A DNA stretch of 64,000 bases from Candidatus Falkowbacteria bacterium. Its GTDB lineage: Bacteria; Patescibacteriota; Patescibacteriia; UBA11705; JABHMO01. Location of the stretch: NCBI GenBank assembly GCA_018674305.1, contig JABHAL010000008.1:954-64953 (forward strand), given 5' to 3'. The number at the start of each line of letters is the position of its first letter. Position 1 is the stretch's first letter. The translations under genes and the position numbers were made by a program. Below the pieces are notes generated by a model. The model was not told the DNA's origin and ran no database searches. It saw only the letters and a list, made by a program, of their open reading frames with translations. Below, one piece after another: positions 33,777 to 37,721 of this stretch.

Positions 33777-36700
33777 TTATATATTTCCACCAATAAATCT
33801 TACAATAAACTGAATTATCAGATAGCTGCTGAAAATTACAGCCAATCCGATCACTGCCCAGACCATGGTTTGTGTGCCTTTCTTTACATAGTCTTCACGG
33901 CCAGCAGAAATCAGCCAGAGGCTACCACCATAGATGAACATTACCAGGGCTATAGATCCAGTTAGGCCTATCAAGAAGGTGATTACATTTCCGATTACTT
34001 CATAGGGGTTATCGGTATTCATGAAGTTTGGTAGGTTTGTTACGGGAACTTCACCACCGCCAGCAATTGGTTGAGTACATTTATTGTCAGAGCCACATTT
34101 ACCTGATTTACAGGAAGCATCTCCACCAACGCCTGGTGCACAAAGTGCGCCACCTGCGCCTTTATCTGTGCATTTATTACCTGTAACGTCACAATACTTG
34201 CCTTCACCACAACCAGTTGCAGTACATGCACAAATGGTCTTTTTGACGCCACCTACATCTTTTTCTACACACTTATGATTTGCCGGACACATTTCATCGC
34301 CACCAGTTGTTGTAACGCAATCTTTACCAGCTTCTACGTCTGCTGTGCAAGTGGTTGCGTTTTCACACCAGGCAGTACTGACACAGTCGCTATGTAATTT
34401 ACAAGTGCCTCCAGCTATGGATTTTGCTTTACATTCCTGATCTTCAATAACACAATATTGTTCTGCTCCAGGTTCTTGACCACAGTGTGAATTATCGGTG
34501 CAAGCGCATAGAGAAACACCAGTAATACAGATATCACTTTTACACATAGTTCCGAGGTAGGTTGAGCAATTTACACCTCCAGTGATTTTATCTTTACATT
34601 TTTTATCACCATTAAAATCACAGTATTGTTCACTGGAGCATTCATCATGCTTGGCACAAGTTTTTGGTGCAGCTGGAGCATCGCCAGGTGATCCTTGAGG
34701 TTGAATTGCGTCTTCGCAAGTTTTGTTTTGAGGATTACAGTTGTTAGATAAACACATGGTGCTGTAGTCACAAGGGGTTTCACCTGTGCCTAATTGCGGA
34801 GTACATATCTTTTGAATATCATCACAAAAAAATCCTTGGGAGCACTCATTGCTACTGGTTTGAGGTGTGCAGGTATCATTTTCTCCTTTAGAACCATATG
34901 TTTGTTCTGGAGTTGGGGGTGGCGTCTCGCCAGGGGCACCTTGAGCTTGAACTGCGTTTTCGCAAACATGGACAAGGTCATTACAGTTGTTTGAAAAGCA
35001 CATGTAGTTTTGCTCACAGGCTCCATTAGTTCCTTGTTGAGAGATACATTCTTTGGGACTCGGAGGCTCACCACAATATAAACCTGATGTACAGTCATTT
35101 TTTCCAGCCTCGGAAAAAGTTTGACAAGCAGCATTTGTACCTTTATCACCATATGCTTGCTGTGGTGTGGGTTCAGTTTTACAATCTGGATCACAACCAT
35201 CTTCAGCAGTATTATTTCCGTCATCGCAATCTTCACCTACGTCAAGTATAGAGTTACCACAAGCCTCTATTATACAAACATTTGAGCAACCATCACCAGC
35301 AACAACATTACCATCATCACAGCCTTCTCCTGCATCATGTACACCATTACCGCAATTTGCAGGAGCGGCAGCAAGTTTACAGTCGTTTTTGCAAGCATCA
35401 GCCTCTTCTTTGTTTCCGTCATCACATTCTTCGGTTCCTTCTTTATTACCATTTCCACAAATTGGAGTTTGAGGAGCAGAGCAACTATTTGAACCACAAC
35501 CATTTTGTGATAAACAGGCGTTAGTTAGTGCATTGTATTCAGCTAATTGAGGATCACCTTGCTCAAAGGATTCCGCATTTTTTATATAATTTTGTAAATC
35601 ACTTGGGATGCTGTTGAAGCAAGCGTTGGGGTCAGATGTACAGCATTGTTGCTGTTGGTCGTTACCATGCATAACTTGATACATTTCGCTTTCTGGTGCA
35701 GGTGGTGGGGGCGGTGGAGGTGGTGGATTAAGATCCTGTTCTTGTTTTGCTTCTTGCTCTTGGGTTGGCTCAGTGCATTTGCTTGTTGTACAAGTACCAG
35801 AAATACATTGAGCTGCTTCGTTGCAGGTTTGTTCACTAGCCAGTTTTTCAATGCATTTATTCATGTCGGCTGGTGTTCCACCAATTATATCAGTCTTACA
35901 AAATAGACCTGGTTGACATTGACCGTTATTACCCTCATTTGTACAGATTTCACCTTTGCCAGGCAAGGTTGGACCGCCTTGATTTGGTGGCGGAGCTGGT
36001 GGTTCTGTACATTTGTTGTTATTGCATTTGTTAGATAAACATTGGTTACCATTACCACAGTCAGCATTAAGTGTTCCTTTGTCAAAACAAATTTTAGGAC
36101 TGAGATAGGTAGCACAGAATTGATTATTCTGACAATTAGAATCTGAAGTACAACTTTCAGGCGGGTCGCCATTTGGCGCTGCCTCACAGTTAGCATCGCC
36201 TGCTGAACAAGCATGTGTGTTTAAACAGGCGTCGGCAAGTGCATTGTATTCAGCTAATTTAGTGTCACCTTGTTCAAAGGATTCAGTATTTTTTACATAG
36301 TCTTGTAAACTACTTGGGATGTTATTAAAGCAAGCGTTGGGGTCTGTTTCACAGCATTGGTTTTGTTGGTCATTGCCATGCATAACTTCAAACCAGTTAT
36401 ATGTTGATCCACCTGGTTGTCCTTGATCGCAGGAGTTGTTTTCACAACTTTGTCCAGGCATACAACCTTCTGGGGATCCTTCTAAACATCCGCATTTTCC
36501 AGCTTGCCAATTCCACAAACATTCATACGCATTTGTTGCAGATAGACCGCCGATTTTTTTAGGTTTACAAGATTTATCACCCTGTATATCACAATAAGAA
36601 CTGGTGTCCAAACAATTATCATGAGAAGTGCAATTACAAATGTTATTTACGCAGGTACCACTTTCGCATTGATTATTGGTTTGACATACAGCACCTTGTT

Positions 36701-37721
36701 TTCCGGCATCAGGATTGTACTGAGCTGTATTTACACAAGAGAACAAACTTTGACAGGTTTTGCCTTCAGGACAGCCTTGCGTTGAGCCTACTGTGCAGGT
36801 GCATTTTTTGATATTATTATCAGCTGAATCGGTCATTAAACCTCCAAGACAAGCATACCCATGTACGGATGCTGCACCAGCAGGTTGTTTATCAATACAC
36901 ATGGAAGTATCTTTGTTGCACCAACGATCTGGGTTTAAAATTTTACAGTCACTCATAGTCTCGCAAGTACACTTTTTGCCTTGATCTCCAGCTACACATT
37001 TATTGGTTTGACATTCATAGTTTACGTTGCAGGCCAGACCGGTAGCTTTTTGTGCGTCAGTATGACAGGAATCGTTGTACCAATTTGCGGCGCTACGTGG
37101 TGGGGCTGAACACAACTCAATGGTAGTGCAGTTTTCAGCTTTGTCTGCACAACTAAAAAAGACAGGGTCACTAGTTTGGTTTGCTGGATCAGTTAGAGAG
37201 GTTGGGTTTGTTATGCCAGGATTAACTATTTGCGCTTCATCAGAAGCAAATTGAAAAAAGGCTGATTCACCATTTAAAATATCTACAATATTGACACCAT
37301 TATTGTTAGGGTATTGAGTGAAAGCACCAACAATACTTGGATTGATATAAGGGTTGTCGAAATCATTAAAATGCACCCCGTAAGCACTATGACCTGCTCT
37401 GTCACGTAGCTTGTTAATAATAGTGTAAATTTGCTGACCAGTATTGGTATTATATTTGAACAAATTTTCAAAATCGATCAACATGGCAGCAGTAAAAGTA
37501 AAATCATTATTACAGTGTTCTTTGTATAAGCCAAGGTAAACATCGCATTGAGATATTTGACCCATTCCACAATAAGCTTTTAAACTTACGTCTACAGTTT
37601 TATAACAAAAAGCGCCTGAGCCTACGATAGAAGAGTTGTTGCCAGCGTTGACTGAAACTGTAGTGATAGTACCAGCAATTAGAAGTACAAAAATGATTGC
37701 AAAAAGTTTTTTCATGTGCAT
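33777..37721 (-). CDS. giant secreted cysteine-rich protein (1314 aa) with Myxococcus-type CxxGxxExCDDGN repeats, poly-Pro linker and C-terminal TrbC/VirB2-like pilin-type TM anchor
   Basis: Signal peptide MHMKKLFAIIFVLLIAGTITTVSVNA. Repeats CGNGVHDAGEGCDDGN / CGNSILDVGEDCDDGN / CGNGNKEGTEECDDGN. A duplicated about 55-aa module (VMHGNDQQ.QCC..DPNACFN.IPS.LQ.Y.KN.ESFEQGD..LAEYNAL). PPPPPPPPPAP. C-terminus IGLTGSIALVMFIYGGSLWLISAG...KKGTQTMVWAVIGLAVIFSSYLII. Confidence 0.8.
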   Translation of the reverse strand: MHMKKLFAIIFVLLIAGTITTVSVNAGNNSSIVGSGAFCYKTVDVSLKAYCGMGQISQCDVYLGLYKEHCNNDFTFTAAMLIDFENLFKYNTNTGQQIYTIINKLRDRAGHSAYGVHFNDFDNPYINPSIVGAFTQYPNNNGVNIVDILNGESAFFQFASDEAQIVNPGITNPTSLTDPANQTSDPVFFSCADKAENCTTIELCSAPPRSAANWYNDSCHTDAQKATGLACNVNYECQTNKCVAGDQGKKCTCETMSDCKILNPDRWCNKDTSMCIDKQPAGAASVHGYACLGGLMTDSADNNIKKCTCTVGSTQGCPEGKTCQSLFSCVNTAQYNPDAGKQGAVCQTNNQCESGTCVNNICNCTSHDNCLDTSSYCDIQGDKSCKPKKIGGLSATNAYECLWNWQAGKCGCLEGSPEGCMPGQSCENNSCDQGQPGGSTYNWFEVMHGNDQQNQCCETDPNACFNNIPSSLQDYVKNTESFEQGDTKLAEYNALADACLNTHACSAGDANCEAAPNGDPPESCTSDSNCQNNQFCATYLSPKICFDKGTLNADCGNGNQCLSNKCNNNKCTEPPAPPPNQGGPTLPGKGEICTNEGNNGQCQPGLFCKTDIIGGTPADMNKCIEKLASEQTCNEAAQCISGTCTTSKCTEPTQEQEAKQEQDLNPPPPPPPPPAPESEMYQVMHGNDQQQQCCTSDPNACFNSIPSDLQNYIKNAESFEQGDPQLAEYNALTNACLSQNGCGSNSCSAPQTPICGNGNKEGTEECDDGNKEEADACKNDCKLAAAPANCGNGVHDAGEGCDDGNVVAGDGCSNVCIIEACGNSILDVGEDCDDGNNTAEDGCDPDCKTEPTPQQAYGDKGTNAACQTFSEAGKNDCTSGLYCGEPPSPKECISQQGTNGACEQNYMCFSNNCNDLVHVCENAVQAQGAPGETPPPTPEQTYGSKGENDTCTPQTSSNECSQGFFCDDIQKICTPQLGTGETPCDYSTMCLSNNCNPQNKTCEDAIQPQGSPGDAPAAPKTCAKHDECSSEQYCDFNGDKKCKDKITGGVNCSTYLGTMCKSDICITGVSLCACTDNSHCGQEPGAEQYCVIEDQECKAKSIAGGTCKLHSDCVSTAWCENATTCTADVEAGKDCVTTTGGDEMCPANHKCVEKDVGGVKKTICACTATGCGEGKYCDVTGNKCTDKGAGGALCAPGVGGDASCKSGKCGSDNKCTQPIAGGGEVPVTNLPNFMNTDNPYEVIGNVITFLIGLTGSIALVMFIYGGSLWLISAGREDYVKKGTQTMVWAVIGLAVIFSSYLIIQFIVRFIGGNI

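Follow-up and report, generated by a model that had tools for sequence, protein, structure and literature searches.

A stretch of 64,000 nucleotides from a Candidatus Falkowbacteria contig (JABHAL010000008.1, positions 954 to 64,953; referred to as the window and numbered from its first letter) carries at 33777-37721 on its minus strand a gene for a protein of 1314 amino acids (aa), here termed the giant, in which a long cysteine-rich chain is followed by a hydrophobic, pilin-like C-terminus. The locus raises the question of what such a protein does with a pilin domain, and on which side of the membrane its chain would be displayed. Falkowbacteria belong to the Parcubacteria group within the Patescibacteria (candidate phyla radiation, CPR), in agreement with the origin that had been proposed from the letters of the DNA in an earlier reading (the original prediction). 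In one genetically tractable Patescibacterium, Southlakia, a type IV secretion system (T4SS)-like system and VirB2-like pilins are essential for epibiotic life (PMC12102498, PMC10633639).

The reading that we favor, at a probability of roughly 60%, is that the giant is a Sec-exported, disulfide-stapled modular ectodomain which is tethered by a pilin-family hairpin and serves variable surface recognition. The leader would be cleaved by signal peptidase I, and the passenger of some 1200 aa, once translocated, would be oxidised to give a long chain of small modules stapled by disulfides. The C-terminal hairpin would then insert so that its two ends lie outside and its Lys/Arg-rich loop inside, and would thereby hold the passenger at the outer face of the membrane. 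There, the passenger may mediate variable recognition of, or adhesion to, the surface of a host or partner, in keeping with the host-attachment role that had been suggested, and the hairpin fusions would be candidate adhesins of these ultrasmall episymbionts.

The C-terminal hairpin and the Patescibacterial pilin family

The C-terminal domain (aa 1228-1314 and the stop codon, 33777-34040, minus strand) matched the Pfam family PF18895 (T4SS_pilin, curated cutoff 26.6 bits) over residues 1236-1306 with 33.9 bits, and with 40.7 bits when the last 100 aa were scanned alone. Two more proteins of the window exceeded the same cutoff, the product of 59199-61388 at residues 66-128 (31.6 bits) and that of the gene starting at 61489 at residues 54-121 (39.9 bits), so that the VirB2/TrbC-like pilin domain suspected in three proteins is present in all of them. 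The hydrophobic motif from which it had been recognised is likewise real: in an alignment of the three hairpins, 17 columns are invariant, among them the quoted Y-x-G, I-G and I-F-x-x-Y positions.

A profile of the window hairpins yielded 61,056 matches at E<=1e-3 among 1.84 billion representative proteins. The best 120 relatives found with the hairpin by word-index search were Patescibacterial and small (78-170 aa), and several carry the name 'pilin'. PF18895 was matched by 122 of the 123 aligned relatives, and TrbC/VirB2 (PF04956) at E<=1e-3 by 26 of the 123 (best 5.9e-8). The hairpin of the giant retains all 11 invariant or near-invariant residues of the pilin-family alignment. Judged by its sequence, it genuinely belongs to PF18895, the family of VirB2-like pilins of Patescibacteria.

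Within the domain, the pre-helix motif LPNFMNTDNP is followed by helix 1, the loop SAGREDYVKKGTQT and helix 2. An AlphaFold2 (AF2) model of the C-terminal 100 aa shows two helices, 25-57 and 62-96, which are predicted with a confidence (pLDDT) of about 90. Hydropathy analysis identified three hydrophobic segments in the giant (1-27, 1241-1274 and 1284-1312). The first coincides with a predicted Sec-type signal peptide (aa 1-26, 37644-37721, minus strand; MHMKKLFAIIFVLLIAGTITTVSVNA followed by G), for which an n-region MHMKK and a V-N-A cleavage motif were read from the sequence. The giant thus appears to combine the family match with two helices of membrane length, a short basic loop and a leader, as in PF18895 pilins. 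Other hallmarks of these pilins are lacking: the protein is not small and free-standing, its hairpin forming the last ~87 of 1314 aa, and the gene stands neither in a pilin array nor near virB4, its neighbors being two relA/spoT genes, an SPFH gene, parBA and topA.

Fused hairpins, free pilins and their orientation

The giant is not the only fusion in this region. On the plus strand, 59199-61388 encodes a protein of 729 aa with a signal peptide, a hairpin at aa 66-128 (59394-59582) and a Big_5 ectodomain (29.9 bits); a public homologue, P0253, was retrieved (P-numbers denote retrieved public proteins, L-numbers metagenomic contig loci). It forms a tandem pair with the gene at 61489-64000 (plus strand), of which the window shows the first 837 aa, comprising a signal peptide, a hairpin at aa 54-121 (61648-61851) and the beginning of a giant ectodomain. 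At full length, in L004, this protein has 4153 aa, and its relative P0165 has 4039 aa. The IPT/TIG-like segment ascribed to it is at best faintly supported: hmmscan of the visible 837 aa gave no match to TIG (PF01833) at E<=1, and a precomputed match on the complete product is faint. Big_5 (22.8 bits, cutoff 23.6) and Big_7 (22.3 bits, cutoff 24.1) stay below their cutoffs in the visible part.

The plus-strand reading frame at 1-801 represents the C-terminal 266 aa, with 30 cysteines, of a 710-aa protein (L033, 7865-9997) whose hairpin lies upstream of the window (aa 86-161; E 6.5e-9 with the pilin hidden Markov model (HMM) built here). All four proteins that had been flagged as large and cysteine-rich are therefore hairpin fusions, of 710, 729, 1314 and 4153 aa. 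The gene for the 710-aa fusion sits inside a pyruvate:ferredoxin oxidoreductase operon, between the genes for the alpha-subunit and the thiamine pyrophosphate-binding beta-subunit (window 805-1770); the region concerned covers window 1-1770 and L033:5620-10966.

The same genome encodes free pilins as well. Elsewhere on the contig, nine of them (121-135 aa) form a tandem array; they are 26-41% identical to the hairpin of the giant, and one is 59% identical to the hairpin of the 4153-aa protein. Among 276 retrieved hairpin proteins, a sample biased toward the query profile, 129 were small pilins and 34 were large proteins (302-4039 aa) bearing a single, N-terminal hairpin. A further 103 contained 2-17 hairpins in one chain, e.g., P0128 (820 aa, 8 hairpins) and P0140 (1775 aa); for these, polyprotein-like pilin precursors, fused arrays and read-throughs in gene calling are conceivable explanations. 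Only the giant and P0244 were large with a C-terminal hairpin, and three proteins fell outside these groups. A search focused on the C-terminus added a size series of 199-345 aa (P0277-P0280) and others of 221-287 aa. N-terminal-hairpin giants thus constitute a common and apparently undescribed class, and the C-terminal type is rarer. In the literature we found no description of giant or modular VirB2 fusions or of cysteine-rich CPR surface proteins.

The hairpin is N-terminal in the 710-, 729- and 4153-aa fusions and C-terminal in the giant. This opposite placement had been pointed out as notable for topology. The placement is real; it would, however, pose no topological paradox. In the membrane, VirB2 and TraA have both the N- and the C-terminus outside and the loop in the cytoplasm. 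The VirB2 subunit of the T-pilus adopts a U shape in which the two termini point outward and the positively charged loop faces the lumen, an arrangement conserved in VirB2/TraA (bioRxiv 10.1101/2022.09.25.509369). With the two ends of a VirB2-type hairpin both pointing outward, a passenger would be displayed outside whichever end it is attached to. By analogy, a canonical pilin precursor that has received a passenger between its leader and its hairpin would give the C-terminal layout, and an extension of the hairpin beyond its C-terminus would give the N-terminal one.

Several features fit this both-ends-out topology. Basic loops connect the helices in the giant (SAGREDYVKKGTQT), the 59199-61388 protein (SGGDAAKIEKAKKW) and the 61489 protein (AGGSDEKVGKAKKW), and in each of the three the leader ends in an A-x-A-type cleavage site, read in the giant as VNA before G. 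All 120 cysteines of the giant (9.1%) lie within residues 39-1215 and none in leader or hairpin. In P0310 (376 aa), L017:3213-4400 (395 aa) and L032:701-2839 (712 aa), the hairpin is located in mid-chain with cysteine-rich segments on both sides. About 5 kb upstream of the window, L033:4908-5642 encodes a DsbA/thioredoxin-like protein of 244 aa that has a CSRC motif and is anchored in the membrane by its N-terminus, a plausible oxidase for extracytoplasmic cysteines of the hairpin fusions. The proteins are thus predicted to be exported, as had been suggested, given a leader with an A-x-A-type site, cysteines outside the hydrophobic segments and a DsbA-like gene nearby. Display of both ends on the outside would account for every architecture observed.

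Fused and free pilins also occur in the same gene arrays. A recurrent order of NTP-transferase gene, gene for an extracellular solute-binding protein (SBP_bac_1/8) and pilin array was found at L001:6909-13034, L016:730-7310, L017:503-4400 and L024:293-4359. The array members are either small pilins, including the nine of this genome (L001), or C-terminal-hairpin proteins of 395-581 aa (L016, L017 and L024). Fused and free pilins are, hence, interchangeable array members, which argues that a fusion hairpin still does the job of a pilin hairpin. Because, in addition, the near-invariant residues are kept, the hairpin of the giant is probably a working pilin module rather than a degenerate anchor. 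At 2.3 kb downstream of the nine-pilin array, L001:15361-15726 encodes a bAvd/23S_rRNA_IVP-type four-helix bundle. Proteins of the bAvd type serve diversity-generating retroelements as accessory factors; in the 20 kb covered at this locus, no gene for a reverse transcriptase was observed.

The shared arrays also bear on a tentative alternative, in which the giant is a true modular pilin: its hairpin would be extracted from the membrane by the Patescibacterial T4SS and join small pilins in a VirB2-type filament, which would thereby bear the passenger as a low-abundance adhesive subunit. The outward termini of VirB2 in the T-pilus and the retention of all family-invariant residues would suit such a role, and type IV pili provide an established precedent for the grafting of adhesive domains onto pilins (PMC8179133). 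Patescibacterial VirB2-like pilins occur in arrays of 2-11 genes and are essential in Southlakia (PMC12102498, PMC10633639, PMC12857230), and a survey across the phylum Patescibacteria detected no T4SS adhesin (PMC12102498; also PMC10633639), which likewise counts in its favor. However, a T-pilus layer comprises five subunits per 13.4 A, and a passenger of ~130 kDa on every subunit is sterically impossible; therefore, only sparse incorporation at the surface or at the tip is conceivable. Furthermore, the literature that we found reports no VirB2-type filament for any CPR organism, and no T4SS genes lie near the gene of the giant.

A broader version of this idea, to which we would give slightly less credit still, is that Patescibacteria build modular VirB2-type pilins, i.e., rapidly shuffled giant adhesin ectodomains, attached to either outward-facing end of the hairpin, that an essential T4SS-like machine delivers to a filament or to a patch of membrane in contact with the host. 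If this were true, the proteins described here would be the missing adhesins of the Patescibacterial T4SS and the first passenger-bearing conjugative-type pilins, and the slot between relA and parB that harbors the giant, described below, would be a host-range determinant.

The passenger and its chromosomal slot

The ectodomain of ~1200 aa was found to be composed of 11 units with eight cysteines each (8-Cys units), two copies of a 65-aa module X and three TIGR02232 units, preceded by an N-terminal domain. The latter (aa 27-228, 37038-37643, all features of the giant being on the minus strand) is an orphan containing a 4-Cys motif and, at its C-terminal end, the motif 'NWYNDSC'. It had no Pfam or NCBIfam match. 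Among the retrieved proteins and loci, it recurred just in P0244 (24% identity, E 4e-4) and, at an internal position, in the orthologue of L011 (27% over 274 aa, E 4e-17).

A first 8-Cys block follows (aa 229-435, 36417-37037) with ~3-4 units of ~55 aa, of which the unit HMM matched 249-312, 305-364 and 360-414. Module X copy 1 (aa 441-505, 36207-36401, from FEVMHGNDQQNQCC to ACL) separates it from a second block of two units (aa 506-655, 35757-36206; units 520-575 and 589-653 with E 2.9e-26 and 1.6e-05). Behind this block, the nine-proline linker that had been noted was confirmed at aa 666-674 (35700-35726), followed by module X copy 2 (aa 678-742, 35496-35690). The three Myxococcus-type CGNG..CDDGN repeats (aa 754-850, 35172-35462) scored 59.1 bits with TIGR02232 of NCBIfam against a cutoff of 20.8 and occupy three stretches, in full accordance with the original prediction; DUF4215 of Pfam stayed below threshold (19.5 versus 27). 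With the hairpin, both domain types expected from the motifs are thus above curated cutoffs. The third 8-Cys block (aa 859-1220, 34062-35147) contains six units, five matched by the unit HMM (859-922, 948-1005, 1018-1073, 1070-1127 and 1162-1220) and a partial one at ~1127-1165, and includes two paralogous segments of ~85 aa, each closed by a Pro/Ala-rich spacer.

Alignment of the units gave the consensus CTxxxxCxxGxxCxxxxxxCxxKxxxGxxCxxxxxCxSxxCxxxxxxC. An AF2 model of unit 520-575, made from the alignment of paralogous units, is rich in beta-hairpins (pLDDT 86), and its top Foldseek matches were Dickkopf (Dkk1/2), MIT1 and knottin toxins, none of them significant (E >= 0.3). Dickkopf_N of Pfam was above cutoff in the L011 orthologue (36 bits versus 25) and the knottin family PF11410 in P0244 (24.5 versus 22); in the giant itself, no Dickkopf- or knottin-type Pfam domain matched at E<=1. 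By sequence and model, this amounts to a resemblance to Dickkopf/knottin domains, not to demonstrated membership.

Module X confirmed the internal duplication that had been described, although with other dimensions. Instead of ~55 aa and ~85% identity, the protein core has ~65 aa, and the DNA copies at 35496-35682 and 36207-36393 (direct repeat D1) comprise 187 nt at 81% identity and are 711 nt apart. The claim that the duplication is recent did not hold. The protein copies are 68% identical, with dS ~0.56 and dN/dS ~0.37 (synonymous divergence and the ratio of nonsynonymous to synonymous divergence, from codon analysis), and with synonymous sites half saturated the duplication is not recent. 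The ratio indicates that both copies are maintained under purifying selection. Module X was found in none of the other retrieved proteins or loci.

A gene with internal repeats, which is moreover an orphan in word-index searches, might be a spurious open reading frame (ORF) or an assembly-made duplication in a low-complexity region. The ORF listing gives one ORF of 1314 aa there, with an ATG start. Its product is identical to NCBI HN858_00295, a 'hypothetical protein' of Candidatus Falkowbacteria bacterium, and a product of 1312-1314 aa recurs in two further, independently assembled metagenome-assembled genomes (MAGs; three in total) and on 16 contigs. The MAG copies differ by at most two N-terminal residues or one substitution; in one variant, a proline of the nine-proline run is changed to serine. 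Every MAG or contig copy shares the same architecture with both copies of module X, three TIGR02232 repeats and the proline run, so an assembly artefact is excluded. The merely 81% identity of the repeats, the matches to curated HMMs and the existence of syntenic orthologues also speak against an artefact, for which practically no probability remains. The full-length word-index search with the giant returned only the protein itself and proteins sharing the TIGR02232 block (P0002-P0006); as the repeats filled its candidate list, relatives were sought via the hairpin. The G+C content of 0.41-0.42 over 32000-38000, compared to 0.34-0.38 in the rest of the window, probably reflects the Cys/Gly/Ala/Pro-rich composition of the giant and not a foreign origin.

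The gene occupies a defined chromosomal slot. The order is dprA, mur ligase, topA, relA/spoT, relA/spoT, X (the slot occupant, distinct from module X), SPFH, a 241-aa membrane protein, a 192-aa gene, parB and parA. Only 33 nt separate the giant from its upstream gene. Immediately downstream lies the SPFH/Band-7 gene (32632-33654, minus strand; Pfam Band_7), which is syntenic in L005, L006, L008, L009, L011 and L012 and missing from L007. The last gene of the unit (31907-32632, minus strand) encodes a 241-aa protein with multiple transmembrane segments, no family match and homologues in syntenic loci, and the unit is closed by a terminator-like hairpin, a 14-bp stem followed by a T-run (31872-31903, minus strand). 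SPFH-guided retrieval of syntenic loci from GTDB genomes yielded one contig of 2.7 kb.

The occupant of the slot varies strongly in size: 199 aa (P0277; L009), 229 aa (P0278; L008), 276 aa (P0280; L005 and L006), 345 aa (P0279; L007), 636 aa (L013), 766 aa (L012), 1314 aa in the window and 1348 aa with 150 cysteines (L011). For the products of the flanking genes, identity to the window is 56-84%, with 61-81% for TopA, 74-80% for the neighboring RelA/SpoT and 76-84% for ParA. In contrast, the occupant shares only 38% over its C-terminal ~290-310 aa and 27% in the N-domain, with 61% to L011 in the hairpin, and between slot relatives SPFH is 25-30% and the 241-aa protein 35-37% identical. The three-gene cassette of X, SPFH and the 241-aa protein is thus either fast-evolving or replaced as a unit.

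The modules differ as well. TIGR02232 and module X are found in the giant, and TIGR02232 is absent from all positional orthologues. L012 and L013 carry thrombospondin-like W-x-Y-S-x-W-x-x-C repeats, L011 begins with another type of N-terminus ('YCC') and a Cys region of helical character and holds the giant-type N-domain at an internal position, and the smallest orthologues contain zero to two Cys units. In the 766-aa occupant of L012 (5955-8255), one slot protein continues in frame into another without an intervening stop codon (junction ~6630-6750). A leader, two Cys units and a hairpin are joined by a K-rich linker to another leader, thrombospondin-like repeats and a hairpin nearly identical to the first. 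The arrangement has the appearance of a recent tandem duplication; if it truly forms a single protein, the topology would be awkward. With module sets differing while leader, pre-hairpin motif and hairpin persist, the passenger appears to have been rebuilt repeatedly by gain, loss and shuffling of modules. The gene in this slot is, accordingly, a syntenically defined candidate for an adhesin or host-range gene whose passenger is rebuilt between close relatives, and the series from 199 to 1348 aa offers a natural set for asking what the hairpin alone does.

In all orthologues the hairpin is directly preceded by an LPNF-x-T-x-DP motif, which could be a processing site. The passenger would then be a long pro-region, or a cargo released in soluble form, and the hairpin would become an ordinary pilin or be discarded. 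Classical pilins (TraA, VirB2 and TrbC) do have long leaders and mature by proteolysis, which counts in favor of such a precursor. However, the hydrophobic h-region that signal peptidase I needs is missing before the motif. A T-D-P-type motif also precedes helix 1 in small pilins and in N-terminal-hairpin fusions, where it resembles a helix cap, and processing of this kind would leave the N-terminal-hairpin fusions unexplained. We therefore consider a processed precursor unlikely.

The position among housekeeping genes, beside the gene for an SPFH scaffold and far from any T4SS gene, could also indicate that the hairpin now serves purely as a co-opted two-pass anchor of proteins that span the wall or form a surface layer, and has lost any link to a T4SS or pilus, and the ~61,000 representative proteins with this domain suggest broad reuse. 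A generic anchor would be expected to drift, but no part of the protein is better conserved than the hairpin (61% to L011 as opposed to 27% for the N-domain). The hairpin keeps the invariant Gly, Tyr and Lys positions of the pilin family, and fused forms occupy pilin arrays, all of which makes a mere anchor very unlikely.

Some further features of the neighborhood were recorded. Directly upstream of the giant are two tandem full-length RelA/SpoT paralogues with HD, synthetase and TGS domains (37755-39212 and 39316-40953, minus strand), a pair that is kept in all syntenic loci and is unusual for so reduced a genome. SPFH as a general partner of C-terminal-hairpin proteins was ruled out, as these proteins have other contexts outside the slot clade and L007 has no SPFH gene. 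Patescibacterial T4SS genes, as published, cluster near dnaA. Proximity of the slot to the origin, considered because parAB is adjacent, was unsupported, the GC skew keeping one sign throughout the window. A tRNA cluster at 28826-29404 (minus strand), with two tRNA-Met(CAT) and one tRNA-Leu(CAA), lies between a metallophosphoesterase gene and parA.

Several results weigh against the preferred reading, a pilin-tethered ectodomain for variable recognition. PF04956 (TrbC/VirB2, cutoff 27.9 bits) was below threshold for all three hairpin proteins of the window and reached 17.5 bits on the complete giant and 23.0 bits on its hairpin alone (E 9.7e-5). At the curated threshold, the giant is thus outside the classical TrbC/VirB2 family, and a link at the level of families is supported by sequence similarity. 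Foldseek found no significant match of the hairpin model to any solved pilin, a two-helix hairpin being too simple to be diagnostic, and profile and sequence searches against PDB sequences also returned nothing. No VirB4, VirB6, VirB3 or VirD4 was found in the 64 kb of the window or in the 10 kb on either side of the small-pilin array. The CPR filaments solved so far are Ig-fold Pam pili, which are unrelated. Finally, no known ligand-binding domain matched the passenger, and the term adhesin is therefore derived from architecture and variability alone.

Relation to known pilin and surface-protein systems

The pilin domain itself was known, and the present analysis extends a known system in which fused architectures have gone unremarked in public databases. 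What is new is that the four flagged proteins are hairpin fusions, that such fusions are widespread and apparently undescribed, and that the giant is an expanded occupant of a conserved, fast-evolving slot. The pilin hairpin is, in other words, routinely fused to very large, fast-changing and presumably disulfide-rich outer domains.

The closest counterparts are the Patescibacterial PF18895 pilins, e.g., of Southlakia epibionticum ML1 (PMC10633639; PMC12102498). Common to both are the hairpin with its invariant residues, the Sec-type leader, the basic loop and the presence of several divergent paralogues per genome, two of the fused genes here standing in tandem. The published pilins, however, are small and free-standing, whereas the proteins described here carry passengers of 600 to ~4000 residues at either end, and the 1314-aa gene resides in a housekeeping slot beside SPFH instead of in an array or near virB4.

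To classical VirB2/TraA/TrbC pilins (PF04956) the hairpin would correspond in its U-shape with outward termini and an inward basic loop, and the profile similarity is weak and consistent. It differs in that the match is below cutoff, no similarity to solved pilins was detectable by sequence or Foldseek and the host is monoderm; classical pilins have no known passenger domains, and their cyclisation or acetylation is not applicable here.

Modular type IV pilins such as PilB and PilC of Streptococcus sanguinis (PMC8179133) likewise consist of a small polymerisation module with a grafted adhesive domain. They belong to an unrelated superfamily with a single N-terminal helix and processing by a prepilin peptidase, a feature absent here. 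Instead of a class III signal peptide and a single alpha-1 helix, the giant has a Sec-type leader and a C-terminal two-helix hairpin, so the analogy would be a functional one only.

The passenger, in turn, resembles other families in parts. Like TIGR02232/DUF4215 proteins, the giant contains three consecutive units well above cutoff, but these make up ~7% of the protein and represent one interchangeable module, not its identity. With Dickkopf, colipase and knottin domains, the 8-Cys units share eight cysteines within ~55 aa and, in the AF2 model, two beta-hairpins, and they are probably a distant or convergent bacterial version of this type of domain.

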